From Isurus oxyrinchus (lineage: Eukaryota), in assembly GCA_026770705.1 (NCBI GenBank), contig JANJGN010000116.1, forward strand, positions 682,001 through 746,000: a stretch of DNA of 64,000 nt, given 5' to 3'. Position numbers and translations under genes: made by a program. Shown in pieces: positions 12,720 to 62,613 of the stretch (position 1 is its first letter; every line of letters starts with the position of its first letter). The notes under the pieces were generated by a model. The model made no database searches and had not been told where the DNA came from. It saw only the letters and a list, made by a program, of their open reading frames with translations.

Positions 12720-12789
12720 ATGATCCAGCTAATGATCCTACAAGTAACGAATATTTACTACCCAATTCTGGCAGTCTTTGCTATTCCCC
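12720..12789 (+). pseudogene. Exon 1 of GPR139/142-like GPCR pseudogene
   Basis: MIQLMILQVTNIYYPILAVFAIP (N-terminus and start of TM1), 70 nt, phase 1. The expected G|GT donor is replaced by C|TAATT. Confidence 0.85.
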
Positions 12790-13339
12790 TAATTCAGTGT
12801 TGTCCAATAGCTTTTGGCTATTTCACTGCTAGTGATTATGTGGCTGATTGCGGGAATGTCTCACTGCCGGCACATTTATCTACGGGGATAAATTGCTGAA
12901 TAGCAGCGGGAGCCCTAGCCCTTTGCGGTGTAAGCTGCGATGCTGCTCAGTACATTTTGAGCACCTCACACTCCTGTTCACATTGAAGAAGATGGAGGTT
13001 TATTTCTCGGTCTTCCAGAGGTTCATTGGCCACTAAACAATGTGCTGCTTAGAATCCAAGGTAACCATCTGAGAGGTAATGTGGCCCATTGTCTAATTTA
13101 CAGTGATAATTCCAAGAGCTGCAGCGTCCTGCGCCCAGAAGGGGACGGGAGGATATTTTGATCAACAGGAAGCTGTTCGTCATTCCTCCATCGGAAAGAA
13201 TTGTTTGTGATGTCTCGGTTCAGTTCAGTTCCTGAGCGAATCTTTCAGATCGATTACGGATAGGAAATGGGCACCGTTTTGAAATACTTTGGATAGTCTT
13301 TTTTTTCAGAAGAAATTTTTATTTGAATTTATTGCTTCC

Positions 13340-14156
13340 TGTAATGGCCTGGGAATTATATTGAACACCACTGGTATCTGATATCCTCCTGAAGAATCGC
13401 CATCTCCAAATTAGCAGACGGAGCAGACTGTAAAATTCTGTTTAGTGTAACATGGATGCTTAGTGGCAAATTGTCAAATTTGCTCAGTGTCTCAACGGCA
13501 ACGGGCTGATGGCAGGAAGGTTGAATATAAGGAAAACCGTTTATTATTTGGCTGTTGAAATTCAACAAGTTAAAAATGTATCCAATTTTCCCTTTATGAA
13601 AATTCTATATGATAACCTGGTTGCCCCTGCGAGGCACTCACGGATAGCCTTGCACTGAACTGTTCCATCAAGCCTCATTCCAGTGCCAGGGACGAAGTTT
13701 GTTTAAAGGGAAGAGAGGATTATATATGACGGAGGGCTGATCCGAATTAGCCGGTTTCACACTCTTTCCTAAGTCACCATTAGCCACACTTGAGGCATCG
13801 AAGCCCAAATGTGGTTGTCATAGGAGGAGTTTGGGGGATACTCTCCAAGACTGAAGTTTCCAGACTGAATTCGAGAGACATTTATTACCACATCATGAAA
13901 ACTTCAGACTGAAATTCAATGGGAGGCGGCAGAAGCCTAATCATTAGACAATGATTTACTGTCTCCACTTGAGGATCAATCACCTGAAAGAACCGAACTT
14001 CCCCAAGGAGCCCGATGGAAGAAACCAATGGACAAGATGTTACTTTTTAAAACATTTATTGTAAATGAAAAAAAAACAAAGTCAAAACATATATAATTAA
14101 ATGCTAATTGTATTCAGTAGAAAGTATTAATTATAGTTGAAGTAGCTGACACAACA
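13340..14156. mobile_element. Possible solo LTR in the GPCR intron
   Basis: TGTAAT...ACAACA ends and an internal TATA-like tatatatga. No clear target-site duplication. Confidence 0.3.
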
Positions 14157-14913
14157 ATGGAAAGTCTCACGCATTTCTCGCCTAGTTCCAAGCACATATT
14201 TTGCACTGTGTTTAGTCCAAATGTCTCTCACAACTCCATCATGGTCTAGCATGCTCAACTATTCTTCACGCAGTGTCCGATTCTCAAGTGTTCTCCAACA
14301 GCTGTATGATTCCATCCCAGCTCCACGGATATGATTATAATCAACAAGGCCTAACTCTGTGAAGCATCTTTCTCTCGGGTCACTACAGGCCTGATGGCTG
14401 AGGATTAACACATGCACTCTCACCTAACATCCCATAACTCTCTAGTACACACTCTGATCAGCTCTTGGTAATCTCACAGATTTTCACGAGTTTTAGACAC
14501 ACAGCTTTAGCAAGAGCCCATGGACATGGCCCTGTTCTGCTGAAAATTAATTGAATACATATATCCCGTCTCCAAGTCTGTTTGTATTTCCCAATCAGTT
14601 TCAGTTTTCTTAACAATTACGTGCACAGCGTCATTTCCCAGAAGTCTGATGTCAACTTTGGAGATCCTAGCATGCTTCTTGTCTCTGTTTCACCTAAGGG
14701 CTTTCACAAAAATACTGTCTTGGAAACTATTTTAGCACAATAGAGTGCATGTTCGTATATTTATTTAGGAAGTTCAAAAAACACAAGCCAATATTATAAA
14801 TCAAATATATGGATATAACGCCGAGTAGAAATGCACTGAAACATTTCTTATAATGTTCTGTGGAATGTACCTGAGTGCCCATGCTACCTACTTACTCTCC
14901 CTTTTTCCCACAG

Positions 14914-15873
14914 CGAACCTGATGACAATCGAGATTCTCTCCAGAGGAAACTGCGGCCTTTCAAAATGCATTTCTTTCTATATGGTGTCCATGGCAACAG
15001 CCATCTACTGCTCATGCTCAACAATGTTCTCGTGCATAAAATCCTGGGTATGCATTTTCCACAAATAATCATGCACTATACACCCATTTGCAAGTTCATA
15101 ATGTACACAGTTAATACCTACGTGTATTTATCGGTCTGGTTTACATTCTCCTTCACATTTGACCAGTTTGTCTCCATATGTATTTACAAGTTTAAGACAA
15201 CATATTGCACAGTGCGAACGAAGGCTACAGTTCAAACATCAATCTGTACCCTCTCGTTTTTAGAAAACATACCATATTGGTTTGCATTTGAACCTAAGCG
15301 AACAGTTAACAATGTTCAAAGGAGTCTCCAACACAGCCTGGAATTATACACATCTCCTTTTGGTGTGCATTTACTTGACTACAAAGCATTTTATTGATTT
15401 GCATTCCTTTCCCTTTGATATTGCTTCTTAATTCTTTGACAGTCAGATGGATTTTAGTAGCCAGACGAGCACGTAAGGAGCTCCGGGGTCAAAGCAGCGA
15501 GAATCAGAGTGATCCGGAAATACAGAACCGAAGGAAATCTGTTATTTTACTGTTCACTGTATCAGTTAGTTTTATAGTGTTTTGGTTGACAGCGGTCGTT
15601 TGTTCCTTAGTCGGTGGTTTGCTCCTTCATGTACGCCCGGATTATACAGCTCCTGTGTACATCGCCCATTAGAGCGGACACATGCCCATGTATTTGAGTT
15701 CATGCACAAACACGGTTATTTATGCGGCTGCACAAATTAAATTCAGGGAAGAGCTGAAGAAGATAGCGACGTTTCCTTGGACACTAATTTTGATACTGAT
15801 TAAAAAATGCAAAATGATACCAACTCTCCACGTTCTAATAATAGTTAAATTGTATCCAACGTTTCAATTCTGA
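14914..15873 (+). pseudogene. Exon 2 of GPR139/142-like class A GPCR pseudogene
   Basis: Acceptor ctttttcccaCAG|CG AAC CTG ATG. Motifs NLMTIEILSRGNCGLSKCISFYMVSMATA, LSVWFTFSFTFDQFVSIC, PFPLILLLNSLTVR, DPEIQNRRKSVILLF and SSCTNTVIY are spread over three frames. Frameshifts at about 15003 and 15370-15395; in-frame TAG at 15670-15672. Confidence 0.93.
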
Positions 15874-16429
15874 ATGGTGGCCTTTGTGCAGCAATGACAA
15901 TGTATTTTTATTTAAATGGAATCAGAAACCACTTTTCCAATTTGTTTCATTTATTTAATGTCTGCTGATTTTCCACGGGGATTATACTAGTAGTTTTTCT
16001 ATATATATTTTGTCACGTGGGTTACGTCATTAACATGCTTCAGAATTGGAGTAAAACCTCTCTGTGTTGCCCCTATCTCCCTTGCAAGGCAGGTACTTAA
16101 ATGTGAAGCGCCAGTTTAATGAACAGCGACGGTCCTAACAGTTCCAATGCCCGCAACAGTGAATTTAAGTTCCAGTTGCGCATTCCAAACACTGCGGGCG
16201 TCCTGTCACGTGCACAGGTGCTGAAATGGCTACGGAAATTGAAATTCCTGATTGGTTGAATTGTGCTGCCCTCGGCCCGCTGTCAACGTCTGCCACTCTC
16301 AGCTCAGGATAAGAGGATTGGGGGTCAGACATACGGGACTTGCCTGCATACTTATGTTGCAACTGTTAGGCTGGTTAAAACTTTGGTATAACTCACAGGT
16401 TAATCAGCAGAACTGAACTGCACAACACA

Positions 16430-17485
16430 TCCAACACCCCAACTCAGCATCACCTGCCAAACCTGGATAAATCCTCAGCCCTGACAGCCTACCCGATCCG
16501 AATGCCCACCCGAAGCAACGGCCGAACCAACATAACTACTCTCTCTCCGACCCAATTACGCCCTCCAAGTCGACTACTCCTTACCCAATTAGCACACCCT
16601 GCCCTCGCAACCTGATTGCCCTTTCCCGATTTGGCTACTTGCCACACAATGACACTCTCTTGCCCAATTACGTATCAACCTGACTACACACCCGACTCAA
16701 CGTCCCACCTGAAGCAAAACAACTACACAGGGTCGGAGTGTCCAGCCAAACCAATTACCCACCTGTGTCACCCGACTGCTCACCCAAACTGATTACCTAC
16801 TTATGAGACCTGATTGCCCATTCAACCCGATTACCCATCTCCATGACCTGACTGCTCACACAACCTGACTGTTTATCCTAGCCAACTAGCTACCCACATC
16901 TGACCCGACAACCCATGCCCAACTTAATACCCACCCCAAACTGACAACCCACTGACCCAACAGCCCAACTGACTTCAGTTCCCCCATGATCCGGCTACCG
17001 ACCCCCGACCCAACTACTGATCATAAATGACATTTAAGTTACTGCTTCCCAAATGCTGATTTGACAGCAGCCGGGAGGGCAGGATAATCGGACCAAGGTT
17101 GTCATTACCTTTCTGCACTTCTCTGTGATTTGGGTCAAATGGCCTGTGAGCTGCGAAGGGTTTGCTGCTCTTTCAGAGGTGCAAGTGCAGTTTAAATTAG
17201 TGGATTTATAAGAACTGGTGGAATGTGTAAAAGACAGATGAGACTGAAGCTTGTGTCAGTTTCATGATTTTTCTGTATTGGGGCTCAGCAAACAGTTGAA
17301 GCTATTGGGTTATCCTCTTTGCACCTGGACACGACCATCCACCAAGCTTGGCTGGACCATCGACCCCAATGCTTACCCGACCGGGCTGCTCACCCGACCG
17401 GCCTATACCCCAACATACTGCCCACCCTGCCCAAACTGTCCAGATGACCTGACCATACAATTGACCCGAATAAACCCTTGACCCC
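16430..17485. repeat. Low-complexity C/A-rich degenerate tandem repeat
   Basis: Recurrent acccgac/cctgact/acccaact motifs at 16430-17020 and 17330-17485. Confidence 0.7.
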
Positions 17486-19389
17486 AATATATTTGACTGG
17501 AATTAATAAGATTGTCATTAAGTTTGTCCATGTTGTGTTATATTTCTATTTTGTAGTAACAGCTATCATTAGCCACTGAAATATCATTAGGCTATTAGGC
17601 GAGAACTGACCCTGCAGCAAAGATCAGTTTCGGAGGGCAGCTGTTCATGATCCTGCCAATCAACTTCCATCTGTTATTTATTTACTTATCCCATCATCTA
17701 CCACTCAGTAAACACCATGAATCTGCGAACTCAAGTTCTATTTTCAAGTCACGGCATGAATCAGCAGCTCCTTGGCTCAGGGATTAATTTATTTTTCTTC
17801 TTTCATTGAGTAAAAGTTGAAAGATGGTGAATGCCGTTCACGTTCCTCCCTGTTCCTGCTCGCCAATATTACAATTGTATTCCTCTATATCTCTGCTTGG
17901 CTTTTGAACTCCCTCCTAACCCTCTTCAATTTCCCTCTGTAAACCATAGCTGAGACCCTATATTTAAAACATTGACTGTCCCTTTGCCGTCCTCCTTCCT
18001 CATGATTGCAGGAAGGATTCGATATTTTTATTTTTGTAACTTTGAACGGTTAAGACCGGACCATATACCTTTGCCACTGGCTGGGATTCCTGGACATAGG
18101 GCCACAGTCACAGTAGGAAAATTCGAGATTTCTCTGCTGGAATTATAAAACAATTCTGCGCACATAGGGAGCAGGACTTCCGAGCACGCCAATTTCTATT
18201 TAACCCATGGCTTTATTTTAAAAAGCAGGTTCAAAGTGTTATCTTAAACGAGGTTCTTAACGAATATGAGGGGTAAACGAACATATGGAGGTACACGCCA
18301 ACCAACCAGGATCTCAGAATAACGAACATACACCAGCGAATAAAGGGTCTTAACAATAGCAAATCTCGACGAACAGTGCCTGGTTTTTCAATGGGGTACG
18401 ACAGCGGCGTCTGGTTTCAACGTTTAATTCGACAATTTTAGATCCAATCTTCTGCCTCAATATTGTTTTGTCATGTTCTTTTCTTTATTCCTTCGTGTTA
18501 AATTCGCACAGTTGCTAAGGGGCCATTCACAGCCTCATGTGGACACAGCTATTATATTTTCTTCCTACAGGCATTACAAAATGTTTGTAACCATGAAGTG
18601 TGCCCCCCCCCCCCCGCCCTCCAACTCCCATTGACAATCTGTTTCGTACATCCCACCCCCTCCCGCACTCCACTGGTAGAAAAGATGTTGTTTTCACATA
18701 TTTCTTCAATTTTGATAAGACATTATTGACCTGGCCTTTTGTCTCCTTAGATGCTCTATGGCCTGCTGAATATTTCCGGAGCTTTCTGTTTATTCATCTT
18801 GTAGTTTTCCAGTGTCTGTACTACTGTCCTTTTCTACCTGGAAACATATTGGAAAGAATCCTGAACAAAATTCATATTCCTCACTCTCACTCCTCGCCAA
18901 TCTTTCAGTTTTCTTGCTCTGCAACTCTGTTTGCTTGTTGAACTCACGCCTAACGCTCCTCAGTTCTGGACACTAAAACACAGCACACGACCTATTTTGA
19001 AGCCACTGACTGCCGCTGTACCGAATCTTCCCTCGTGATTTTTGCAATTATTTGATCCAAGGTTTCGGGTTGCAAGAAGAAACATAAGATCAATCCAAGA
19101 ATCTATTTCCACTTCCTTGAAGACTTGCATGAAGGGTCATAGTTTAAAAATTAAAGCCAGGGATCCCAGCATGGAAATTATGAAACAATTCTACACACAA
19201 AGGATGCTGGAACTTCAGAGCTCCCATTTAGATACAGAAAATAATGCTCGAGTAACTGTTTTACTTTAAATCTGAGATTCATAGAATTTTGTCAGAGGGT
19301 ATTAAGGACGATGAGGCAATGGCGACTATATTGAGATAGTCACAAATCAGGCACAACATCATTCAGCATGTTCTAGGTGCTTAATGGCG

Positions 19390-19480
19390 TTAACAGCAGC
19401 AAACATCGAGGAACATCACCTCGTGTTCCAACTGGGTAATCTGCAGCTTCCTAGACTCAACATTGAGTTCAACAATTTAG
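19390..19480 (+). mobile_element. Penelope-like element ORF C-terminal fragment
   Basis: IEEHHLVFQLGNLQLPRLNIEFNN resembles the end of the Penelope GIY-YIG domain. Confidence 0.7.
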
Positions 19481-21990
19481 ATCCTAACATCTGTCCCTAT
19501 TTTCTTTCTAGCGTGTATTTGCTGGTTTGGTTTGTCCCGTTTCTTATTTTAACCTCCATGTTACATTCGGGAGGTTGCTGTGCTGCCGTTCACAACCTCA
19601 TCTGGGCATATATTTTGTGTGCAATGTCATAACCACAGAATGACAGAAGCTCAGAACTGCCACAGCGCAGGTGAATGTCATTGACCCATCATGTCTGCAC
19701 CATTTCTCTGAATGAGCAATTCACTTTGTGTCATTACCCGCCACGTTCCTTTATGAACGTTCTTCATTTCCAAATAACAGTCTTATCTTCTTTTCAATGA
19801 TTCCCTTGAACCTCCCTCCACCTCTTAGGGAGTGCATTCCAGGCCTAAGCATTTTCTTCAAAAAAAGACTTTTTTTTCTATTTTTTCCTCCGTTTCACTT
19901 TTGATTTTTGTGGACAAATACTTTAAATCTGCATCAACTTGATCTTGATCATTTCATGAACGGGAACACTCCCAGGCCTCTCATAATTTTGAATCCCTCT
20001 ATCAACGCTCAGTTCAGCCTCTTTTTCTCCCAGGGAATCAGTCCTAACTTCTCAAATATATCTTCGTGACTGATGTTCCTTATCCCAAGAAGCATTCTCG
20101 TGATTTTTTTTCTGCCCTCTTCCCAACATCCTTCGCATCTTCACATCCTTCCTAAAGAGCAGCGACCAGAACCAGAGGGGATGCACCAGCGGAGACTGAA
20201 GTAAAACCTTCTGCAAAAATTGTTTATGTTATTCCCATTACAATACTCTTTGTTTATTTATATCATTAAGTATGTTGTCTCCTGTCCTCACAGGCAATCG
20301 CATTCGAGGTGATCCCACAACCAACGGATCAGATTTACGCACTGTAAGCCTGCCACATGCATTCATGGATGGTGGTGGACAACACCTACTGGAGAAGGAG
20401 GCTCCACAAATAAATGATCACCTTACGAGCGATTCTCGCATCCCCAAAAGAATAAAAGAAAAAAGTTGTTAATATTTTCCAAGCATTGCATCAATTTTTC
20501 CCTGGGGCCCTGTCCCAGTCTCAGTTGGGCAAAGGCCCCAAATCTCATCACCAGCACGCTGACAGATACCACAGCGTCACCCTTTTCTTCAGTGAGAACC
20601 TAATCGAAAGAGTTTCTGGGTGGAATGAAAGCGGGGAACAAAATGCTCTGAAATAAACTGTGGTTGATTGAGATATCTTTAAAGTCTTGTTTTTTTTTTG
20701 GAAGAATTACCTCTGAAATCTCTTAAGGCTTTCGTAAATGCACCCGTAATATCGTTTTTTTTTAAAGTGTGTGCGGCGGATAAAGGTCTAACAGGAAAAG
20801 AAAATGGCATCCACTGCATAACTTTTGCAATAACCCCGAACCGGTTATCATTCGGGTAACAGTGCAAACCCACAAGGTCATTAGGATGAAAAGAAGATGG
20901 AGCAATTCTTAAGAACAAGGGTGCATGTTCGCTTCGAAGAGAATTTCGACCCTATTGTGCTTCTTTATATTTGCACGTCATTCTATATGCTTCCTCCCAA
21001 CTTGAAAATGTTCAGCTCTTTACCTAATTAATTTGAAATAAATAACCGCGTTATTGAGAACCGAACTTTGAACCGTCTGCAATATTAAATGTAAGAAACG
21101 ATCCGCGGTGCTAAGTTACAAGCAACATCACCCAGCCCTGTTTTGAACTGTGTTTGATTATTTTGCAGCAAACTCGTTTGGAATTATTCATTTGCTATAG
21201 GGCTGTAGAGCAGCACGAATTGAGAATATTCAGAAAGGAGCAATTGAAACGGATATCCAAACAGAAAGTTCTGGAATGTTTAAAAAGACGTGAGACACAT
21301 GATATACCTGCTCCGTTTTCTCATTTTCTTAGACACCGCTCAAAGGGAACACCAGGATTATACTGAGTTGGAATGGAAGCGGTGCTGATTCACCAGTGCG
21401 ATTCCCGAATTCATTAGGGTTTTTTTGGAGTTAAAGATTCATCATCCTAGATTCGAATCAACATAGAATGTATACAGAATAGAGAGGGGCCATTTGCCCT
21501 ATCCTGCTTGTCCTGGCTCTTTGAGGGAGAAATTCGCCCACTGTCAATCCCCCCGACTTCCCTCCATCCCTGCACAATTTTTTTTTTCTACTTTCAGGGA
21601 TTCATATTTTTTCTGTTCTCTTGATTACAGGAGAATGAAGCGTGATCTGGTTGAAGTTTTTAACCTGTTAAAATGAATTGTTAGGTTAAACGCAGAGAAG
21701 TCGTTTCCTCTGGTGGCAAGAACGGGATTGAATTTTAACATTTTGTTTTGCCACAGGTCCACAATGACTGTGCCAAATAACGGATATGTCAGGAAGCACT
21801 TATCACACTTGGAACATCAGGAATCCCAGTAACAATTCATAAATTGATCGAGGCTACCCCAGTTTCGAGAGGGTGGATCTTTCCTTGGAAATAAACGAAA
21901 CGTTACTTCAGTTCTCCTTGAAGATGTCAGCGTCCATTTTTCTGTGTTTTGTCGTTTTACTTGCAATCAACAGCTTGATCCAAAATGCAA

Positions 21991-22069
21991 CCCATAGACT
22001 GGGACTTCAAGCCTGGACCCTCAGGTTATATGTCTGATGCGCTACAGAGCTCTCTAGAGCTACTCGGCC
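21991..22069 (-). pseudogene. tRNA-Lys(UUU) pseudogene
   Basis: gggacttcaagcctggaccctcaggttatatgtctgatgcgctac matches the reverse complement of vertebrate tRNA-Lys-TTT (GGGACTTGAACCCTGGACCCTCAGATTAAAAGTCTGATGCTCTAC). The anticodon loop is mutated and there is a D-arm insertion. Confidence 0.85.
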
Positions 22070-25206: not shown

Positions 25207-25275
25207 AGCCAGACGTGGACCTATCACTTGAACGCTCAGATTAAAATTCTGGTGCCCTAACGAAAGACCTGCCCA
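25207..25275 (-). pseudogene. tRNA-Lys(UUU) pseudogene, duplicate copy
   Basis: ctcagattaaaattctggtgccctaacga at the equivalent position of duplication unit B. Anticodon TTT is retained; the T-arm/B-box is degraded. Confidence 0.7.
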
Positions 25276-37985: not shown

Positions 37986-38614
37986 AAATGTTGACCAAAA
38001 AGGCAGAAGTATCAAACATTGCCTGAAAAGTAGAATATCACGTAAAGCGCACAGGGACAACACAGTGGGAGGCGTATTTATTGTTAGTCATAAGCAAGAA
38101 TTGTAGAGGAATATAGGAAGGGCAGCGGACACCTTGCAAAACATAGGTACTTGATACTGAAGGCATGGCAGAAATGCTGGAAAGGCAATTTCTGTCAGGG
38201 GGTGACTTTAGAAAGAGAAACAGAGTTAACTCTCCAAGCCTGTAACATTTCATCAGAACCCAAAACGTATTTTATTTTTCTTCCTTGTCTGACCTGTTAA
38301 CTTGCCTATAATCTCACCATGTAGTCTCACGAAGTTGGCTTTTTATGTATATTGATGCCCCTCCTGACTTGCTCCCCATCTGCTGCTTGACCTGTTTCCA
38401 TTTCCAGCATTTTCTACTTTGTTTCAGAAATCTGTCCTTTTTGTTTCAGATTTACTGCATTATCCACAGTATTTATTTTCTTCTTTGTGTTCGCATGACC
38501 TAATGTACGGGAGCATTAAACATCATCCAAGAATAATGCGGAATAATCGCTGGGGGTCTAAAAGGCCAAGGTCTTCCTTGCCACATTTCCCAATCTCTTA
38601 TCTGCTATTGTAAC

Positions 38615-39490
38615 CTAACGGCCCAGTACATTATGCTCCTTTTCATTGTAGGAGCTCGAAAATTAGCTACAAATTTGCCTCAGGCCGCTGTAGAGAAGCG
38701 GTAGAGGATCTGGAGGCATTTCACAGGACTTCCTGATGTTCAGTTCCACTGACTGCAATATCAGATGTGGACCCGCCGGTCCAATTTTGCGCGCCTACCA
38801 TTTGTTTTTTTTCAGCTGCCCAATATTTAATTTAAATCTTTATATTTCCGGAAAGAGCTGCCAAATGTTATTCAACACTGCCCATGCCTCGTGCAACTCA
38901 CGTGATGCCGCTGGCCCGTTAGGCTTTGCTTATATTTCTCCTAATTCTGCAAAGTTTCAGTAACGAATTACACAGCAATTCGGAAAAGAATATTGAATGA
39001 GATATTGGTCGTTATCATTTTTAAATGCACTTTGAACACCTCACGCTTAAACAGGCTGCCTGGACGGAAGGTGCAAAAGAAAGTCTTTCACCTATTTCAC
39101 CAAACGCTCCGCTTTGGCAAAGCTAAATCAGGCATACATCCCAGAATGTGGCAGAGGGATTTTCCGGTGACATTGAGGCACCTGGGAGATTCTTTGGGGA
39201 TGCTTTGTAGCAAGTGGAAGCTCTGGGAGCCGCATGATTGGTTCTTGAAGCTTATGTTTTACAAATTACCTTTCAATGATTTTCCAAAACTTCACCTGTC
39301 GCCAGAGTAATTTCCATATTAAGGAGCGTTAGCAAGGTTCTAAACGGAAAACAACCAGATATCGTTTAATGAGCAGCTCATTTTTAAAAGCGAGTGAGAA
39401 GTCTGCGATAATGAAATAAATTTCAAGGACGCTCATATTTTATTAAATGCATAGAGCCTCGCCTCCCGCGCCTAATTTGCTGTTCTGCTG
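38615..39490. mobile_element. Unclassified CpG-rich interspersed element within the intron of the orphan GPCR exon
   Basis: Compositional shift with no protein homology recognised. Family assignment is not possible by eye. Confidence 0.3.
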
Positions 39491-39624
39491 GTATTAGTGA
39501 TTTACTCCAACGTCTCTGTGATTATATAATGACGGTGCAATCAGAAAGTTATTAAAATACCTTATAGCGGCCAAAACTGTCATGAAGCCGAACAATTTTT
39601 CATCAACAGGATTCTCCGACTGAC

Positions 39625-39694
39625 CAGGAACACCAAAGGTTGCGAGAAGAGGATAGAACATGTCCTTTATCAGGAGGATTGCCGCTTGTAAAAT
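39625..39694 (-). pseudogene. Orphan exon 1 of a third GPR139/142-like GPCR
   Basis: (I)LQAAILLIKDMFYPLLATFGVP then G|GTCAGT donor. It is 70 nt and aligns codon-for-codon with 12720-12789. The start-codon position reads ATT. Confidence 0.85.
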
Positions 39695-40579
39695 TTTATC
39701 AAGAACAGGTGAATTCTGATCCAACTGAAGTGCATGTTAGACTCATTAACAAACGCATTTTTTTTTTTTGGTTACTCGATGCCCGAGCACGGAAAAATGA
39801 AACATCGTTTTACTTACAGTCACTGAACAATTGTTGGTATATTTTCTGCTTCAGCCCACCCGGGAGCAGCAATTGGGAAATGGCACATCTCAGTTCATGA
39901 ACGTCCATCCTTTACAATCACGAAATGGAATGTACTACAGGCGCAGAGTTAATGCTTAATGTGCACAGGCCAAATCTCTTGAGTGCAAGTTCCTCCTGGA
40001 CATTGGGTTAAACACTTGAGGGTGGATGCTCAACAGAAATTTTGAACAGTGTAATCATTCACTCTATATTTAAAATTAGATCTTTCTGTTATTGGCGCCA
40101 ACGCTACACTAACGTTTTTGTTAGCAACCCAAATTTAGCTTTATTGATGCTGATCCTATTCTAACTTTATTGCGTATGATGCTATTGTGGTATTAATATT
40201 CCTGAACCTACTGTATTATTGCTGGTAGTGAGTAATCTCTTTGATTGCTGACAGTGTTCATACACAAACGTAAATGGAAGTTACACTAGGCTAACATTCC
40301 AGACTGGGACCCTTTTTAAAATCAAGATGATTCGAATCCTGTCGTGTTCTGTGATGTCCCTCCATCTCTACAGACTTGCAATGTTCGTTCGTGGATGATA
40401 TTACCAAGACATGAATGCAAAAAAGACTCACGAGAATGTTTCCACGATATGAATGGTTGAACAATCAGACAAACTGATCAAGCAAAAGGCTGACATAGTC
40501 ATACACACTGAATCGTTGCAATATTCTAGAAACCATTGCAGGCCATGTCCTGCTCCACCAGCAGGGCCAACAACACCAC

Positions 40580-40819
40580 NNNNNNNNNNNNNNNNNNNNN
40601 NNNNNNNNNNNNNNNNNNNNNNNNNNNNNNNNNNNNNNNNNNNNNNNNNNNNNNNNNNNNNNNNNNNNNNNNNNNNNNNNNNNNNNNNNNNNNNNNNNNN
40701 NNNNNNNNNNNNNNNNNNNNNNNNNNNNNNNNNNNNNNNNNNNNNNNNNNNNNNNNNNNNNNNNNNNNNNNNNNNNNNNNNNNNNNNNNNNNNNNNNNNN
40801 NNNNNNNNNNNNNNNNNNN
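40580..40819. other. Assembly gap (240 N)
   Basis: Run of n characters. Confidence 1.
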
Positions 40820-48700: not shown

Positions 48701-50329
48701 AGGATTGACAGAATACTGAGTGAAATAAATTATTGAATTAGTACTCCAGCTGGAGGGAAGACACAGTGCGTGTGTCATGCAAATATGCTAAAATATCACT
48801 ATGACAAAGAGAAGCAAATTGAGGCATTGTTGTGGTAGATTTAGAGAGAGAAAGTTATAAATGAAGGATTCTGAAAGTTCATCGAACCACATTTTTCATA
48901 TGGGATACTTCTACTGTAAAGGTACAACAGAGTTATCTTCCAAACAAGCTTTGAAATGATATGGAGAAAGTATTGCACTCGTACAAAGCTACTACAGGAA
49001 AAGATAACGAGGCCAAATTTAGCTACACATAATTTTGGTGTAGGGGAGTAAATTTCAATAAAATAAACTTCCTGGTTGATTAAACCCACCAAAGTTATCG
49101 CAAGAAGAGAAAGTAACAGAATTCATTCTTAAAATTACATTATTTTGTCTCAGTGCTGTAATTAGATTTTGCATATTGTGATGGTACCACAACCAGGTGG
49201 AACTCAGAACTGTGAGGGGACTATTTTAAGTTGAATGTAGTGACAAAAGTTGATTTCTATCCCATACCATAGTTGGGAAATTGCTTTGAGGCATCGGAGC
49301 AATCAATCTTCATCACAAACTCTGACTGGCTGAAGCATATGGGCAAGTAGAGTTATCAGAGAAGGCAGAGGAGATATCGCTTTCTTTTGTTTTGCCAAGT
49401 TGATTACATCAGTTTAATTAATGCCATTCGGTATGAAAAATGCACCAGCATCATTTCAAACATTGAGAAAGTCATTGCACGGCTGAGCAATTGGACTATC
49501 GATTTTGATGGCTTGATAGTTTTCAGCCAGGCGTGGAAGAGCATTTACAACTGGAAGAATTACTTAACCATTGCAAGAATCCAATTTGGTGGCGAAGCGG
49601 ATTTACAAAAGTACAAGTTACATTTCATTTGACCTCTAATGGTGGCTCAAAGAGCAATGAATGTCAAAGCCAATGCAGGATTCCCCGTTCCGACAACAAA
49701 TTGAAAAGTTCTAAGATTTCTGCAATGATGGGTTTTACTGGACGTTTGTACCACATTGTAAGTGTACGATTGCTCCATTAGCTGACCGATGAAGAAGACA
49801 ACATGTAGTTTCAATGAACACTGGAGAGTCTGAAGTCATGTGACAGATTAAAAACTGTATCAACTACGACACCAGTTTTGGCAGTAGGCAAAAATGCCAA
49901 GTAATTTAAGTTGGCTGTTGACGCAACTCATGCAGGCAATGGCGCTTTGCTGTTGCAAGAATATGGAACCGAAAATAAAAATAAAGAAAGTTGAAATGCA
50001 CATCAAAGAATATGTTAAACGATCGAAAAGGAGACACAAGGCCTGGTCTTAGCGTTGCAAAATATTGAAGTTTATTTGCAAATAGTTCAAAAGAAATAAT
50101 TGCTTATACAAAGAACAATCCTTTAAAATATCTGGACAGGTTTCGAGGCCGACGTGCAATAGTATTCAGATGAAACTTTTAACGGCCATCATGCAAAGCA
50201 CATTCAGTGCATTCGACTGTTTGAGAAAGTCTAATTGCAGCTGCATTCATGCTTACAGATGATGGGGAAATTGGAGATTTCAAGGCTGGACAATAGGCTG
50301 AAGTAACTTCAGTTGACTCAAATCTGTCA

Positions 50330-50717
50330 GAATTCTTTTCATGAGCTAACGAGTAGGGTAGACAAAGAAGAGCCAATGGATGTTATCTACTTGGACTTCC
50401 AGAAGGCCTTTGACAAGGTGCCGCACAGGAGGTTCCTCAGTAAGATAAGAGCCCATGGTGTTAGAGGCAAAGTACTTGCATGGATAGAAGATTGGCTGTC
50501 TGGAAGCAGACAAAGAGTGGAGATAAGGAGGTCCTTCTCAAAATGGCGGCTGGTGACTAGTGGAGTTCCGCAGGGGTTAGTGTTGGGACAACAACGTTTC
50601 ACTTTATACATTAAAGTTCTAGATGAAGGAACTGAGGGCATCGTAGTTAAGGTTACGGAAGATACAAAGATAGCTGGAGGCACAGGTAGTATTGAGGAGG
50701 GGGCAAGGCTGCAGAAA
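50330..50717 (+). mobile_element. CR1 RT fragment at the Gypsy pol/3' LTR junction
   Basis: DVIYLDFQKAFDKVPHRRFLSKIRAHGVRGKVLAWIEDWLSGSRQRV...VTSGVPQGLVLG. Confidence 0.92.
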
Positions 50718-53249
50718 CTCGGGTTGGGGCAAAGCCGTTTGGAATTCCACTATCTTTTTTTTTAATGTGCTAGGCCCGTTTTAATTCTGAAATCTATTTT
50801 GGACTGTTGCCTTAAAGGGGGTGTGACTGGGGATTAGTTTTTTTAGGAACCTCAGTAGTTCCTCTGCCAAAAAGCAATTTGTAGTTTTATGGATGTAACT
50901 GAAATCTTTATATTGTCTTAAAATATAATTTAATTTAATTTTTGAAACCTCGAAAGGTGTTGGAGGACTTATTGCTTCTGAAATCAGTGCACCTGTCTCT
51001 TAATAAGTGCAAATTGCAAAACGGCTGTTGCAGCACAATCAAGTTTCCATAGGGGATTTACGTCGTCCGGCATACATCTTCTGCCATATTATATCACTTT
51101 CCAGGGGCATACTTAGTCTTTAACGTCTCTCTGTGCTCCTTGAAAACTTCCACTGTTCCTACTATGATATTGAAGAAGATGCTTTCCATTCCTTCCAGTC
51201 AAAATCACAACTCATCTGATAATCTTAACCTTTCCTTATTTCTGAACTCTGCCTCTATGTTTGCAGTCAGTATGATAATTATCACTGAATAGTTCTGCAC
51301 TGATCAATCTTCCACCTATCCAGCTTCATTTCCTAGGCCCAAGTCTCCATCGACTTTATGGGAACTTAGCTCTGCTCTGGGATATTGGACGTTTTCTAAC
51401 AGGTCGTGGAGAATTGGTCAGTACCTGGATCCCCTGTCATATGTATATACACTGCTTTGTTTCCGGTCACTAAATCTTCAGTTCTGGAATGTCTTGCAGT
51501 TCTGTCTCACTGTATTCTGACCCTTACTTTGCTGGGTACCTGGTCAGCTAATAATCTGTCAGTTACTTGATGTATGATTAGACACTGGCCATTTTGTCAG
51601 CTTGATTGTCATTAGATGTTCAGTTTCTGAATGATCCATCAAGTTATAGCCTGTCACCCAGCATCTTCCCCCAATCACCATTCAGCACTCTGCAATGTGA
51701 AACCAACACTTCCCTCTGGCAGTCTTGAACCTTCTCGCATCACCCTGGAACCTATAACACTAAAACGGGACATACCTTCCCTTCTCCTGATCCCACACAC
51801 GTTACTTTGCTCAAGCTCACACTCGCCCTGCTCAACCCCTTTTTGATGCCACCTCTACAGTCGCCCTCCATCACCCTCCCTACCAACATTGCAACTGAGA
51901 AAGAGATGCATATTTATCATCTCACCCTAAGTCATCTTTCTACACAATGTCACTGTAACCATATGCACTAAGAAATTAAACCCTCAGGTAGCATGCAGGA
52001 CCTCAGCACAGCGCTAACCAGTCCAGAACAGGCAATGACTCTTAACCACAAAGCACAAGCCCAAATCCAAAAATAAAACCATTGACGCCCTACCTTTAGA
52101 GAGCACGTTCCCCACTACCATTTGCAGGCCACGTTCTTCAGCCATTTACAGGCAAACCCCCAAAATTCCCTTCAGAGATTACCATCCAGGATTTCTTTTA
52201 AACACCACATTCGATGCCACCTCTTTTCTGAATTCCATTCAGACCCTCAGGTGCTTTTTAAGGATGCAACCCTCCGCACGCCTCCCCCAACTCCCTTTGT
52301 GTCTTTTTCCTATTCCTTGCCATCATACCATCAGCTGGGCCCAAGACCCAGGCACCTAACAAAGTTGGTTGAACGGTGTCTACACGATCAGTTTGGTTAG
52401 AGAGAGTTCTCTCTCACACCATGCACGACAGGTTGCCAGGCCTGGAATCCGAATGGTGAGAATGATACTGGTTAGGGCGTGAAGCCCACTATGCTCTCGT
52501 CTGATGCTAAGTTAATGAGCATTCGTGAGATGAAACATGTGTTCCCGACTTTAACCGTGGGAAATGGGGACCACATTTGAACTGCCTTGTATTCGGATGG
52601 GAAGAACCCGACCAGGTCTCCCAACGTCAGAAAAAAAAGTTTGTGTCCTCCCTCCACATCTACCACACACGGCCACCATATTCTCATTGCTGGAGGGTGT
52701 GTACGATTAAAAGAGGAATATTTTTAAAAGATGAAGTCAGTCCTGTGATTGAACATGTAATAACATAAAAGAGGTCGAGCATTAATGTATTGAATTGGGC
52801 ATTTACTGTGTGGTCAGTAAAATGCATTATGTGGCTGCGGAAGTGTGCAGTTTTGCAAAGATAAATTGAACATTGGATGATGCTGCCCTGGCACTGACTG
52901 TAATTGTTATATCATCTCAAAGGTAAATAGCTGCCTCTGCTACTTACAGATTCCGTTTAATTGAACTCAGCAATTTACACAGAAGTCTTACGATTCTTTA
53001 TTATCATGCAATAGGTTAGAAATATTTTATAGGTCTTGATTTACTCGCATTAACAATTCAATTAATTTTGTTTGATGATCAAACACGGTACAAAACTGCG
53101 AGATGTTCCTCACAATCCATGAAGATCAATTTTGGGAAGATGATGGTGTTCTAACTTGAGTAAAAATGATTCCAATTACTGGTCAACAGCTGTAAAACTT
53201 TAAATTCTTAGCACTTGGAGGCCGACTGGTTGATCTATCTCACCCTCGT

Positions 53250-54830: not shown

Positions 54831-55905
54831 CAAATAATAACTCATCATCAATATATCTTCTTCAAGCCAGAAATTATACATAAACAAATTTTGAAAGATA
54901 CGCCAACCAGAGAACGTTATCACTGTAATAATTATTCAAAGGAATAGCTGAGTTGAATTGCTCGGCCTGACAGTAATGATGTGAAGTGGGAGCTGATTGA
55001 TTTACATATTTAAGATTATTTGCGTCACTTCATGTAATCAGTTCATTCCACAGACTTATTCACCCTTTATCAGCTGTGGCCTCAGTATCCCACACATGGA
55101 AACACCGTTATCTGCAACGAGAGAATCAGGCACGAAATCTAAAGCTTCAGAAATACACAAAATGTTGTTTCCTTCTCAGCCCAGTTTTGTATCGCCCCAC
55201 CCCAACCGTCCCCCACAAAACCGCACCCCAAAAGCACCACCCCCCACCCTATCCCCCGGACAGAGACTTATCTCCACCTCCTTATGTCCAAAAGATGCAG
55301 ATGTAAATGTCAATGTTAAACTATTGGTTAAAAAATGATCATATTTGCCTGGGCTATTTCGTACACAATCTGTCTTCTTGCCTAGATGAGTGCAGCCCCA
55401 ACAACAGTGAAAGTGAAACAAAACATTTCATAATAAAGATGGATAATTATTGAATAAATGTCATGATTCTGAATGCAGGACTGTGGGTCACAGCCAATAG
55501 AGGTATAAGAGGACAGGGAAGTGGATTCCTGAATTAAAATTTTAGAGATCTGGAAACAGCTGATAAAAATGTATTTCCAGGAGAGCTTGGCTTTTTGAGT
55601 CAATATAACTCAGTTGGTCTTTTTTATACTGAATGAATGATATATATATATATGAAGATGAAATTCGTCATGGCAAATACCCTGGGTTCTATGGCAGACT
55701 ACATCTTGAGATTAGTGACAGTCAGGCCTGGGTACAGACGGAAGGCACAACAGAGCGAGAGCGATTACTGTAAAGTAAGATTTAGATCCCACAGTTTGGA
55801 AAGAGGAATTGCACACCTGATACCAGGAACGGTGAAGAGATGGTTCATTTCCATTTAATGTGTAGGGTAGTGGCGGTGGTGCTTTTGGTGGTGGTGGAAA
55901 CTTAA

Positions 55906-56360
55906 GGTGCAGCACAGGGTTAAATATAAAGTAATCCTATTTCTACATTGTCTCCAACAAACGCTTGCATTAGAATTACAGCACTGGGTTAGATGGAGTA
56001 CAAGTATCTCTCTACACTGTCCACTCAAAGGCACGCTACACAGATACGGCATGGGGTTAGATACTGATTAAAGCGCCATGTACACTGTGTTGAACAAACA
56101 AACCTTCATAGGTGCAACACAGTGTTAGATAGAGGGTAACACTCCCCCTATAATGTCCACATATAACACTCCCTCTACAAAAGCAATACTTGTTTAGATG
56201 TAGACTTGTCTTTCCTCTGCAATTTCTGCATTCAATGCTCCTTCATCAGGTACAGCATGGGATTACATACAGGATACATTTTCGTCTAAATTGTCACAAT
56301 CAAACAATCACAGGGGAGGTGCAGCATTGAGCCAGATGCAGAATAAAACTTTCGCTCCTC
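55906..56360. repeat. Degenerate ~68-bp tandem repeat, about 7 copies
   Basis: Anchor ggt(a/g)cagca...gttagata recurs at about 55906, 55976, 56043, 56111, 56179, 56249 and 56318. Confidence 0.85.
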
Positions 56361-56361
56361 A

Positions 56362-56640
56362 GATTGCGGTCTCCTCTTCATGTTGGTGATCAAATTGGAA
56401 TAGTTGACTATTCATGGAACACATGTGGTCTGTCAGAAAACATGACCTAGGTCTTCTTTTCGCTTACCATGTCAACACATCATCCTACTCCCATGCCTAC
56501 ATGTCCGTGCTTGGCCTGCTGCAATGTTCCAGTCTAGTCCAACGCAAAGTTCCAATTCAGCTCTTTGCAGTTTTCCAAAATTAACAATGACTTAAACAAC
56601 TTTGGACCATGAGCACACTCCTCCACTTTAACACCATTTA
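56362..56640 (+). mobile_element. Penelope-like GIY-YIG endonuclease fragment
   Basis: Degenerate CGLL.....EHMWSVRKHDLGLLFAYHVN and HAYMSVLGLLQC. Confidence 0.7.
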
Positions 56641-56879
56641 AAATCCCTTTGTTTTTATATTTATAAATTTTATACTATAGCTGTTTTCACTTTCTTCCAT
56701 TCATTGTCTTATCCTGTTTTCTCCCTTTTTATCCACCTTTGTATGTTTTCATTCACACAACCTTCACACGCCTCCTCCAGCACTGCCATATGTCAATGTT
56801 TCTAAGTTGTTTTTTGACAGAATTCTGAAGCTGCTTCTCCTATTCATACATTCTACTTTTTCGGCTGGATGCCAGTATG

Positions 56880-59800
56880 TGCACCTTCCTTAGCCTTCAC
56901 GAGTCACCAGATGGCTGCAGGGCATTCCAAAGAGCAAACTGAACAGGCAGATGTCGTGGTCCATGTTTGGACTATTGATACGGGAAGAAATGTTTTCCTG
57001 GAAGCACATTTTATGGAGTTAGGTAGCAAATTGGAAAGCAGGACTTCAAAGTTATTAATCTCCAGAGTCTTCCTGGTGCTACACAGCACTGAAAATAGGA
57101 ATAGATGGAAAGGAAAGAGTAATACGTGGCTTGACAGCTGATGCAGGAGGGACAGATTTGGATTCCGGGGGCATCGAGAACGCTTCTGTGGGGGGTGGGG
57201 CCTAATCAAATTAGACGGGGTATATCTGAACAGGAACGGGTACAAAATTGTTGCAGCGAGAATTTCCAATGCCCTTGGGACAGATGTAAACTAAATTCTC
57301 AGGGTAAAACAATCCTGAAACGGAGTTCTAATGCGGGAGCAGCTTAGAAGGATCTAGAATTTTAAATGTGAGTAAGTGTTTCTCGAAGGTAGAGGATATT
57401 GGCTAGATACCAATTAAGTATGTTTTGCAAGGCTAAACAGAATGTATGCTTTATGCAAGCAGTTCGAGGTAAAAAGCCAGAGGATCCGAGGGCACAGATA
57501 GGCACTTCGATGTCAATGCTATTACTGAGAATTGGCTAAAAGAAGAGCAGGATTGGAAACTCAACAATCCTGGCAAATGGACATTCAGACAAGGTAGTGA
57601 GGGGCATAGCAGTGGAGGCGGGGTCGCAATATCGATCAAGGAATCAATTATAGCAGCAAAGAGGGATGTTATTTTGGAAGGGCCCTCAAATGAGGCCATA
57701 TGGGTAGAAGTAAAAAGCACAAAAGGTGCAAACACGCTGTTGGGTGTGTGCCATAAGCTCCCAAATGAGTCAAGGGAGAGGTAAAGGATTAACTATTCAA
57801 TCAAACTTCAGAGAAGTGTAAGAATAATAGTCCAGTGGTAGTAGGAAATTTTACCTGCACAATTGTCTATTAACTGGAATAGTATTATCGTGCAAGGTGG
57901 GGCAAGAGAATTCTTTTTAAATTACACCCAGGAGAACTTTTCTGGTAAATATGTAGACAATCCAAGAAGGGACCGATCAGTTTTGGATCAAATATTCGTA
58001 AATGAGCTTGGTCAGGTAGAAGCCGTATCAGTGGGGGAACATGTTGGCAAAAATGACCATAAATTTGTCAAATTTAAAGGAGTTATTGAAAAGGAGAGGT
58101 TTCGCCTTGGAATAAAAGTTCTATAGTGGGGAAGGCTAATTTTGATACGATGGGGTTCGATTTGGCCCAAGTGGACGGTGAGCACCTAATAGGAGATAAA
58201 AATGTGTCAGGGCAGTTGCTTGGAATTCAAGCAGGAAATAGCGAGAGAACAGGGCCAATAGGTTTCCGTAATGACAAGCTCCATGTCAAGGGACGTACAG
58301 GGTTAGGATTGAGAAATGAAAGAGAAGCTTAAGCCAGATACCAATGGCTGAATATGACAGTCCCCCTAGAGGAACTCAAAAATTGCAAGGGGTAACTTAG
58401 TATTGAGCGTTAGATTAAAAGAAATAAAGGGTTATTTAGTTTTTTTAGTTTAAAAAGAGCATTAAAATAATGGGAGAAAGAATAGGATCATCAAGGAACG
58501 TAGAGGTTATCTGTGTGGTCACAAAAGATGTCGTTACAGTTTTCACCTAATAGTCTGTGATTTTTTTTTCGCAATGGAAAAGAACGACGCAGTATCTGCA
58601 TCAAAGTAGAGAGCTGTGAAATTTTGGACGAAATTAACATAGACAGAGAGGAGGTACTAGCAGGTTAGCGGACGTAAAAGTGGCGCAATACGCTCGTCCG
58701 GATGAAATGTATCTCCTGCTCGTGAGGGAGGCAAGGGAGGTAAACAAGGGGCTCTTTAAATAATTTTCAAATCTTCATTATCTACAGAACCGGAGGGCTG
58801 TTAAAGTTAACCGATTATTTTAAAACTAAGAAAGGTTTAGACCAGCAAATTAAAGGCTAATCAGTACAGCCTCGGAGATGGGAAAGTTACTAGGAAGAAT
58901 TATGTGGGGTAGTATGCAAATGCACTTGAGAGAAACGAATTAATCCAGAATAGTCAGCATAGATTTGTTAAGGGAATGTCCTATTTGATATTGTTCTTTT
59001 TTGAAGAGGCAACTTGGAGAGTTGATGAGTGTAATACAATTGATGTGCTCGAAATGGGATTTAGCAAGGCTTTTGATGTGGCCCCTCATGGAAGATGGGT
59101 CAAGTAGGAAAAAACCCATGGGAACCAAGGAAAATGGCAAGATACAAAATTGGCTGAGAGGCAAGAAGCAGCGCTTGATGGCAGAGGGTTGTTTCTGTGA
59201 CTGAAAGTCGTTCTCCAGTGCGGTTTCACAAGGCCTAGTGCCGGTCCCCTTGCTGTTTGCGGTGTTCATACATGAATTGGAGTTAAATTTAGGAGAAGTG
59301 AACAAGATGATTGTGGATGGAACGAAAATTGTTGGGTGGTAAATACTGAGGAGAATTACGGTGAAATCTAAGAGTTTATCAATGGTTTTGGCAGATGGGC
59401 AGAGTAGTGGCAAATGGAATTCAACCATCAAAGGTGTGTGTTAACGGGCTTGCTAATGGCTCACAATGCAATGGACTATGAACAGTAGGACCCTGGCAAG
59501 TACTGAAGATCCGTGGAACCTTGGTGTGCATCTCCACAGATCCATGAGGGTAGCACGGCAGGAGCATAAGTTTGTTAAGAAGCCTTTAGTAGCTGAAGCT
59601 CAGAGTACAATAGTGGAGAGGTTATGCTGGAGCTGTACAAAATTCTGTTTGGCTTACAAGTGCAGTCCTTGTCATCACATTAAAAACAGAATTTGATAGA
59701 ACAGGTGAGGGTGCAGAGGGGATATATGAGGATGCTACTTGGACTGGAGGGTCTGGGCAATGATGAAACATTCACTAGGCTGGTGTTGTTTTTCAGGGAG

Positions 59801-60190
59801 CAGCGAATGTTCAGAGGGGACCTGATAGAGGTGTATAAGATTATGAGGGTTATTGTAAGGGTGGCTGGAGAGGCGCTTTTCCCCTTAGTAGATGGGTGAA
59901 TTAACAGGGTCCATATATTTAGTTGAAGATGTAGAAGGCTAAGCGGGAAACTGAGGAGAATTTCTTTCAAGCTGAGGGTGGTGCGAATCTGGAATGCTCT
60001 GCCTGAAAAGGTGGCTGATTCAACATGTCTCAACATTGAAGAAGTATTTAGATATTCACTATTGTTACCATTGCCTCTAGGTCTATGAGCCAATCGCTGC
60101 TAAATAGAATGAGCATAGTCAGGCCTTTGCTGATGGCCACAGAAATGAAAGGAGCAAATTATCTTTAACTCTGTTGAAAAGTCTATGAGT
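56880..60190 (+). mobile_element. Near-full-length degenerate CR1 LINE (ORF1 esterase, ORF2 APE and RT, 3' UTR)
   Basis: ORF1 EQADVVVHVWTIDTGR...LGSKLESRTSKLLIS (SGNH-esterase-like); APE AITENWL, GGGVA, SVLDQIFVNE, HVGKNDH; RT KIQNWLRGKKQR and RGDLIEVYKIM. Confidence 0.92.
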
Positions 60191-61714
60191 CGATGAGTTA
60201 TCCTATAGCCACTCAGCCAGGATTGTCGTTCTCCAATTCACTGCACCCCACTATTTAGTCAGTCATTCCAGTCAATGTCGCTGTCCGTTTTTCTCCTTAC
60301 CTCAGGGTTATCTTGAATGAAATGCTTTCTGAAGTGTTTCCTGTCTCACAGACTTAAATAACAACAGAGAAAGCGATTGCCATCTCGTATATTTAGGGAT
60401 GACTTACCTAGAGTTTTTTGAGGGTGAGGAGCATTGGGCTGTGTACAAAGGATGCTATCTACAATCAGTTCTTCAGTAAGATTCATTGTGTCTGCCTCAC
60501 CACAGTTACAGTGCAGGAGAGGCTGCAGGTAAGTTGTGGACCTCAAGACCGCACGAGCTGCAGTTGTCATTAGACATGTGCCCTCCTCCCATCACGAACC
60601 AATCCTCAGAAGCATCTACCTTCATGTCTATAAATGGTTGGGGGATAAAGCTGCTGTCAGATTCCAAAAAACAAATGAAGGGCCACATCCCCCACCTCAC
60701 CAAACCATATCGTTTGTCTAATGTGTGATTGGAACTAAACCCCAGGAATTATTGAAATAAGGCAACACACATTTATAGAGCCGCTTCACATTTCAGAATT
60801 TAATTCCAAATCATTGTCGACGTTCCACAGTCAAATAATTAATTACATTAAAATGTATCGTGCATAAAAAGCTGCAGACGAATTTCTAACAGCAAGATCC
60901 CACAAGCTGTATCACGTTGCCAAATTGGAGGCACCCTCCATATTGGCAACAGATAATTTGTGCCATTCAGCGTTTCTCCTTACATTTGTTCCTCCCTCTG
61001 TCCCTCTCTCTCTCACTGTTTCCATCAATGACTTCTCTCTGCTTTTTTTCTGTCCATCTCTCTGCCTCCCTCTTGTTGTTTCATGATTATTTTCCAATTT
61101 GACTCTCTCCCTCCCTCCACCTGTCTCCATTTCTTGGGCTCTGCCTTTCACACTATATCTTCAAACTCTCTCTACGTCCATATCCCTGTTTCCTCAATCC
61201 ATCATCTTTATCTTTCTCTCCCTTACTCTCTTTCGCTTCATCTGAATGAGCTCACTCTGTCTGACGTGACACCCCAATGCTCTTTGGGATTTGTCATCTT
61301 GGTTTCCAACAGAATTATTTCTATCCAATTATTGTGATGGATCGCGATTATGTGCTAGCAGCTCGCCTAAAGGTAGAGAAGGTCTGTGAGTGGTTGTGTT
61401 TTGCATCGAATCAGTGATTGATAGCAATGAGGAATAGCCAATGGAATGCAGAGGTGGAGGGAATTCTTATCCTTTCTAGTCAATAAGAGATAGCAATGAT
61501 GGACAGACAGTCCAGCCAATAGGAAAGCAGTGATGCTAGGGCTGTATTTTTCTGACATATCAGGAAGGGGTAGTAATTATGTTCAATCAGCCTGGCCAAT
61601 GGGAGTTCAATGACGTTTGGCGTTGTGTCTCTTTTTCTGTTCAGTCAGTAAGGATTAACCACGATGGAGAGGCAGCTCAGACAATAGCAACACCCAGTAA
61701 TTGAGTTATTCTTA

Positions 61715-62613
61715 TCAGTGAGTTAACTGAAGTATTAAGGTTAAGGGATATTTCAACACATTCTTCAAGTGTTGTCTGAACGGAGTCTGTGTTGTAGCGT
61801 AAATTGCAGTGTTAGTGCAGCAGCTCAGGAGCTGCAGCATGAAGCCCAATTCTTGAAGAAACCAATGCAACTGAAAAGAAACAAAGCCCAAATTCCACAG
61901 CCGCCTCCACACAGAATAGGCCATTAAAGTTGACCATAACAGTACGAAATTGGCTGATATCACAAACAGTAAAAAAATGGATTTCCTTCGGCTCTGCATC
62001 TCAGGGTCTCTGGGACTCTCCACATTATTGTAAGCCCGGAGTCTCCTGCGGGCTCTGCTGCTCACTACAATGTGCCTGATGGTGAGAATATTGAACAGCA
62101 GAATCAGGGCAAATGGGACACATGGGGTTAAAATGTGGTGGCGGAATTCGATTGTTATCCAGAATGGAGAGATTTGAACATCGCTTTTGACTTTGCAAAA
62201 CCAGGGGGCGTTCGTCAGCCAATACTGACCTGTTAACATAAAATACCAGAAAATGTTCTTTAAACAGCTCAGCACAGTAACTGCCCCCACGACCACAGAC
62301 GCTGTTTTCTCGCTGCAAAAAAGTCTTTTCAGCTTTGCAGAACAAATGACCACAAATCGATCTAAGGTGAACGTGACAGTGTACCAGACAGAGCAGTCAG
62401 TGGCTGAATAAAGCAGGACGGCGTGGATATTACACACGGGGATGGCAACCAGGAAGTAAAAGTGTTCTCCAAAAACAATCGGAATGTGTCTCAATATCAG
62501 GTCCAGGATGACGACCAATAGATCAGCCACTGCCATGGCCACCAAGTAACAAGTGACACATTTGGATAGACCACAGTTTTTACATTTGAGGATCACAATT
62601 GTGATTAAGTTCG
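61715..62613 (-). CDS. Exon 2 (late TM1 to C-terminus) of a GPR139/GPR142-like class A orphan GPCR, open frame; exon 1 not found in the window
   Basis: Acceptor tttccacctttctcaCAG|CG AAC TTA ATC (phase 1). Motifs YLVAMAVADLLV (TM2), Cys at the top of TM3, SVWYTVTFTLDRFVVIC, PFALILLFN (TM5), DPEMQSRRKSIFLL and LSCCTNTAIY (TM7). No stops or frameshifts in about 298 codons. Confidence 0.93.

Follow-up and report, generated by a model that had tools for sequence, protein, structure and literature searches.

Three broken receptor copies in a recombining shark amplicon belong to a large two-exon receptor family of cartilaginous fishes with a possible chemosensory role

We analysed a 64-kb stretch of the Isurus oxyrinchus genome (C116:682001-746000, where C116 is contig JANJGN010000116.1 of an assembly of 4.98 Gb), which is called the window below. 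It carries pieces of three class A G protein-coupled receptor (GPCR) loci, designated pseudogene A, relic B and gene C. All three are broken copies and none of them is a whole gene, so that the window's three loci are relics. They belong to a family of class A GPCR loci with two exons that occurs in sharks, rays and chimaeras and is separate from GPR139 and GPR142 but related to them. The family is real, probably important and of a familiar kind, an expanded GPCR repertoire with a predicted function. The window carries its three broken copies in an amplified block, and we propose that intact members of the family would act in chemosensory cells as sensors of many outside ligands, most likely peptides. 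Judging from sequence, we give this proposal an even chance. New here are an open exon that has lost its first exon and a recombining amplicon, which give evidence of how the array turns over.

The preliminary description of this DNA had placed three receptor pieces at 12720-15873, 39625-39694 and 61715-62613, and all of them are present there. Exon 2 of gene C (61715..62613, minus strand) runs from the middle of the first transmembrane helix (TM1) to helix 8. It begins after an acceptor AG at 62614-62615 in phase 1, and 298 open codons are followed by a stop. Pfam recognises it as a class A GPCR (7tm_1, E 9e-15, 55.2 bits against a cut-off of 30.5), and the genome holds 29 copies at 92-100% protein identity. 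The rest of the window on this side (62614..64000, minus strand) is the 3' end of its 23.6-kb CA-rich intron. Pseudogene A lies on the plus strand. Its exon 1 (12720..12789, 23 codons from the ATG to the middle of TM1) has a destroyed donor, and a decayed TATA box was read by eye at 12642..12647 (TGTACA, where an intact relative at C116:768 kb has TATAAA). Its exon 2 (14914..15873) is frameshifted and shows 91% DNA identity to an intact relative; against an intact relative it has two 1-base deletions, two stops and a 1-base insertion near the end. Using gene C as a tblastn query, we found pseudogene A at E 2e-41. Relic B (38064..40000, minus strand) consists of exon 1, the region upstream of it and the initial 1.5 kb of the intron; over 2 kb it is 74% identical to an intact paralogue with both exons at C35:5.25 Mb. 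Its exon 1 (39625..39694, 26 copies at 95-100%) retains the GT donor and has lost the start codon, with ATT at the position of the ATG in the paralogue. An exon-1 profile searched against all frames of 164 kb found it at E 0.009. In the paralogue the ATG is present and exon 2 lies five kb further on; the match to the window ends at 38064, 3.5 kb before the expected exon 2. Splicing of the relic B exon to a distant exon 2 was rejected, the next one on the same strand being 55 kb away, broken and of another type. The masked 240 bases at 40580-40819 were rejected as its exon 2 as well, since they lie upstream of B and are too short. Taken together, the tblastn match, the profile match and the 2-kb alignment mean that the resemblance of the three pieces to receptors is not due to chance.

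The exon 2 of gene C had been described as open. This is correct for its 298 codons, but this copy has lost exon 1 by deletion, so that gene C is a relic too. Searching C116:744.6-865 kb with the profile, tblastn and a donor scan, we found no exon 1. The next same-strand exon 2 upstream is 121 kb away, with no exon 1 between. In four of the first five sister copies fetched, exon 1 is located about 23.6 kb upstream. It turned out that a 14-kb deletion at C116:767067-767070, 21 kb past the window end, took the exon 1 of gene C. We therefore rejected gene C as a living member, because this deletion accounts for the absence of its exon 1. Among the 29 close copies, 24 retain exon 1, and the 25 copies of this exon that were found all have an ATG, an open frame and a GT. 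The other five copies, called headless below, have common breakpoints; four are letter-identical over 80 bases, and the fifth was identified by BLAST only. An extra stop or frameshift occurs in two of the five headless copies and in none of the 24 complete ones (p 0.025). To compare nonsynonymous (pN) and synonymous (pS) differences we used 28 of the 29 copies, dropping one (L029) because of a frameshift. In this set pN is 0.0165, against a pS of 0.030 and 0.030-0.032 in the flanks (binomial p 0.003), and indels amount to 0.08 per kb against 2 per kb. Thus, purifying selection acts on the gene C copies, and the complete ones are probably functional, since pN is below both pS and the flanks and indels are scarce. 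Open second exons overcount working genes, as the five headless copies demonstrate. The gene C type of exon 1 codes at the N-terminus for tandem repeats of about DQNLRTIDWNVTTM, a unit that contains an N-glycosylation sequon; their number varies among paralogues from one to several. A 5.4-kb tandem duplication was also seen in the CA-rich intron of a sister copy (C105:505.5-516.2 kb).

The region from 12720 to the window end at 64000 lies within a single unit of a segmental amplification that is recent (about 3% divergence), and the order and orientation of A, B and C are the same in sister units. Close copies of gene C share 95-97% identity over 3.9 kb including flanks (one of them only partly) and are spread over 17 contigs, with at most four per contig and in both orientations. 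Pseudogene A has 12 copies at 94-100%, all broken, and its two 1-base deletions are common to all 12. None of the 26 copies of relic B at 95% or more has the family start codon. Since these lesions are shared by all copies of A and all copies of B, they are older than the amplification. It had been suggested that the window displays three paralogues at three stages of decay. This was not borne out: all three are broken passengers of a recent block amplification, and their lesions were inherited rather than acquired in separate events. Headless copies are scattered on the exon 2 tree, requiring five changes, and a single origin of their exon 2 was rejected by the approximately unbiased (AU) test (p 1e-4). 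The units thus swap segments. Unequal crossing-over, as we infer, would multiply multi-gene blocks with living and dead genes alike. A second mode of amplification was observed at C34:1.27-2.31 Mb and 9.81-10.1 Mb, where tandem arrays of family genes, all on one strand, have a spacing of about 15-19 kb.

The family is far larger than this block. Exact motif searches of the genome gave 1,422 matches for TM3 (0 in the reversed control), 2,416 for TM7 (9 in the reversed control) and 1,397 for the exon-1 end with its GT donor (0 in the reversed control). Capture-recapture, based on two match lists for C17-C21 (36 and 68 entries, with 20 in common) and so extrapolated from few chromosomes, gave about 4,300 loci (3,300-6,300), and the union of the lists gives at least about 3,000. 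Thus, the family comprises roughly 3,000-6,000 loci, clustered on many large chromosomes (C2, C17-C34). Exon 2, which alone was scored, is open in 18 and broken in 22 of 40 loci hand-picked, not at random, from the first 100 listed TM3 matches. The 324 kb around the window contain 10 loci, three of them complete and open. A number of working genes on the order of a thousand is plausible, before correction for alleles. A homologue search returned 798 clusters, and all 118 named ones among the best 120 of these 798 were from sharks. A second search returned 106 clusters at 50% identity (E up to 1e-30), and the 20 that were looked up were all from sharks, rays, a skate or a chimaera. Named members thus come from sharks, rays, a skate and Callorhinchus, and in RefSeq they bear the name 'probable GPR139'. 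The idea of a lineage-expanded class A GPCR family with local clusters and many pseudogenes therefore stands, and the genome-wide count that had been named as its check yields thousands of loci, not a few. Several oddities among the database homologues are likely annotation artefacts: models that contain receptor parts twice, models whose N-terminus carries a RING label or retroelement sequence, and a GPCR of invertebrate type that is entered as 'signal transduction histidine kinase'.

The loci had also been called GPR139/142-like. The GPR139 motif WITVP.T.DRY has three matches in the genome, namely GPR139 (C15), GPR142 (C22) and one family member at one mismatch, and the family TM3 reads W[FY]TVxFT[FL]DRF. 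The true GPR139 and GPR142 occur once each, on other contigs, with a phase-1 intron before the TM1 Asn as in the family. We built a quick tree of 74 rows and a careful tree of 26 rows, from which 48 rows were omitted. The cartilaginous-fish clade (support 97/96) is joined first by its sister, a gene of amphibians and sturgeon (98/96). Further out follow coelacanth and teleost genes, with a coelacanth protein in the next clade, and then amphioxus. GPR139 and GPR142 fall outside; the deep root is weak (48/14), and the rows did not include TRH receptors. Uniting the family with GPR139 and GPR142 was rejected (AU p 0.00045). Thus, the family is a cousin outside the GPR139/142 clade, and for this reason the amino-acid ligands of that clade are not transferable to it. 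In a word-limited search, the amphibian gene gave a single cluster for each species, and this held in all 20 amphibian rows. The nearest outside matches belong to the wider GPR139/142, GPR210 and MIP/FMRFamide receptor group, with which the phase-1 TM1 intron is held in common. A common origin of GPR139/142 with the receptors for MIP, FMRFamide, proctolin and myosuppressin is described in the accessible part of PMC8514136. GPR210 orphans stand beside GPR139/142 in coelacanth, gar and teleosts (PMC6504862, accessible part); the same part has no match to 'shark', 'cartilaginous' or 'Callorhinchus' and lists no amphibian under GPR210. Judging by these neighbours, the family is probably near GPR210.

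A structure model of a whale shark member (predicted local distance difference test, pLDDT, 86.7) shows seven helices and helix 8. A fold search matched it to class A receptors, among which receptor types are not separable by this method. Between gene C and the intact relative of pseudogene A, identity is low in the first extracellular loop (ECL1, 2/16), upper TM3 (2/17), ECL2 (7/26) and ECL3 (2/16), and high in lower TM3 (11/15) and the first intracellular loop (ICL1, 6/9). This agrees with the earlier remark that the exon-2 copies share family signatures and diverge in TM2-TM3, ECL2 and ECL3. The picture of a hypervariable extracellular face holds; within the gene C subfamily, variation is found in the loops and helix tops, and TM3 is almost fixed. 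We determined this from 49 paralogues, left from 61 after removal of near-duplicates. The ratio dN/dS (omega) is 0.37 in the helices, 0.56 inside, 0.97 outside and 0.15 in TM3. Using our own implementation of the site models, we found that M2a exceeds M1a with a likelihood ratio test (LRT) statistic of 333 and places 9% of sites at omega 3.9. Of the 21 sites so placed, 17 are in the extracellular loops, which hold 58 of the 298 codons (Fisher p 3e-10), and one is at the top of TM7. Trees made region by region recovered almost the same sites. When placed on the model, the fast sites fall on the ECL1 helix (positions i, i+4 and i+7), on the hairpin of ECL2 and on the upper ends of TM6 and TM7. 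In the intact relatives of pseudogene A (C116:768247-771450 and 605.8-612.9 kb, both plus strand), the TM3 cysteine is kept and its ECL2 partner is missing.

Class A receptors act through G proteins. In the proposed repertoire, each receptor would bind its own ligand and signal via a heterotrimeric G protein. Selection would keep the helical core and the G-protein face and diversify the rim of the pocket, that is the ECL1 helix, the ECL2 hairpin and the TM6/TM7 tops, and subfamilies would differ deep in TM2-TM3. The suggestion of a sensor repertoire comes from the size of the family, its clustering, its decay, the outer-face bias and the small known olfactory families of sharks. In the accessible part of PMC10116579, these are given as 6-13 OR, 3-5 TAAR, 2-4 V1R and 8-43 V2R. 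The guess that the ligands may be peptides follows from the location of the fast sites at the pocket rim and from the invertebrate members of the wider clade being peptide receptors. A bolder version, which we hold only tentatively and regard as possible rather than probable, is that cartilaginous fishes made a main chemosensory repertoire, of about a thousand working genes, by independent recruitment of a peptide-receptor-type orphan that is single in amphibians.

A number of results weigh against a chemosensory role or soften the case for it. In the catshark, V2R probes strongly mark the olfactory epithelium. No GPCR is among the top 50 genes of a catshark brain-and-olfactory library in the accessible part of PMC11979771, where sparsely expressed receptors would escape notice. 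In 14 promoters, O/E-like sites were found in 5 against 3.0 expected (0/14 in two control stretches) and homeodomain sites in 11 against 8.6 expected, with no clear enrichment of either. Much of the family count is recent amplification, and a nearly identical twin exists for 12 of the 29 gene C copies, some of which may thus be alleles assembled apart. The selection tests lose force as well. On the whole alignment a fast-but-neutral null beats M2a (log-likelihood -11178.8 against -11194.0), and adding omega to this null gives just 1.44 (LRT 8.0). With the rate controlled by thirds, omega is 2.6 in the ECL2 third (LRT 25.5), 0.59 for ECL1 and 1.4 for ECL3 (LRT 2.1), so that the ECL2 third alone retains a clear excess of omega over 1. 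ICL3, on the inner side, reaches an omega of 1.1. Site tests are also inflated because gene copies recombine. The site-wise dN/dS analysis that had been suggested thus finds fast sites that are extracellular and no uniform purifying selection, but omega above 1 clearly past the rate control just in the one third. We regard the location of the fast sites as firm, but not the strength of positive selection. RNA bears on neither side: among the RNA records listed none holds gene C, and five possibly-RNA runs of unstated tissue yielded only fragments of other members, short and of low depth; intron ends occur in some of them and a spliced joint in none, and we give them no weight either way.

The same pattern of sites may be read in another way. 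With fast sites in exposed loops and a TM3 that is nearly fixed within a subfamily, the family resembles a partner in host-pathogen conflict, and it may be a repertoire of innate immunity or of barriers. Its members would then be receptors on leukocytes or mucosae that sense peptides from microbes or damage, comparable to formyl-peptide and Mas-related receptors, or receptors with an outer face that evolves under pressure from pathogens binding to it. Thousands of loci exceed immune GPCR families, which number dozens, and we consider this explanation unlikely, even though MAS1 and its relatives are missing in sharks (PMC8455134) and mouse GPR142 is linked to cytokine output (PMC12844162), according to the accessible parts of both sources. 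We judge it less likely still that the family is a by-product of unstable amplifying DNA, with a modest number of ordinary hormone or neuropeptide receptors and a remainder drifting under weak constraint. Amplification does affect dead genes no less than live ones (12 copies of A and 26 of B), one deletion is now in five units with unrelated exon 2 haplotypes, more than half of the sampled loci are broken, and the rate-only model fits equally well overall. Such drift is hard to reconcile with purifying selection among very young copies, with dozens of deep subfamilies (40-50% identity) common to sharks, rays and a chimaera, and with fast sites limited to the outer face while frame and core are preserved. 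Gamete or reproductive-tract receptors for mate or sperm peptides, amplified like germ-line ampliconic genes, are improbable, since clusters also lie on many large chromosomes, although the large direct and inverted 97%-identical exchanging units resemble ampliconic germ-line regions and the insect sex peptide receptor belongs to the wider clade (PMC8514136, accessible part).

We found no description of the expansion in the literature covered, which excluded subscription journals, and no match in eight supplement files of PMC13188829. The family may thus rightly be called largely uncharacterised as far as the open literature goes, its members carrying the label 'probable GPR139'. GPCRs are called relatively scarce in cartilaginous fishes in the accessible part of PMC8455134; thousands of loci under this label contradict that statement whatever the function of the family. 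Olfactory receptors of these fishes have been counted at a few dozen at most (PMC10116579, accessible part), and a chemosensory repertoire of this size, if true, would overturn the view of sharks smelling with a few dozen receptors. The old puzzle of a keen shark nose with few receptors becomes testable, and the single amphibian gene is a convenient model for the ancestral ligand.

Elsewhere in the window, decayed retroelement sequence was recognised at 50307-50765 (plus strand; RVT_1, E 1.7e-10). Short open reading frames at 11819, 42419, 57473, 58940 and 59680 are decayed retroelement fragments, the first two without a Pfam match and the rest judged by eye. Tandem repeats lie at 11530-11731 (44 bp, 4.6 copies) and 16746-16863 (38 bp, 3.1 copies), and no tRNA genes were found in the window.

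Among known systems, the Trp/Phe-activated GPR139 and GPR142 (PDB 7vug, 9m42) are the best sequence match among solved structures (E 1e-5), and they share with the family the intron position and its database name. They differ from it by an identity of only 20-24% and by forming a separate clade. GPR139 is without the TM3/ECL2 cysteine pair and the ECL2 hairpin that C-type family members have, and the TM6 proline, kept in the amphibian gene, is missing in most family members. The GPR210 orphans and the amphibian-sturgeon 'probable GPR139' gene have the FTFDR and DPE..RR.S motifs in common with the family but are low-copy, in contrast to its thousands of loci. The vertebrate chemoreceptor repertoires (OR, TAAR, V1R, V2R, T2R) resemble it in their clusters, many pseudogenes, birth and death and variable ligand face, and its size is comparable to that of a mammalian OR repertoire. 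Unlike them, the family stands on another, peptide-receptor-like branch of class A and has two coding exons separated by introns of 2 to more than 20 kb.

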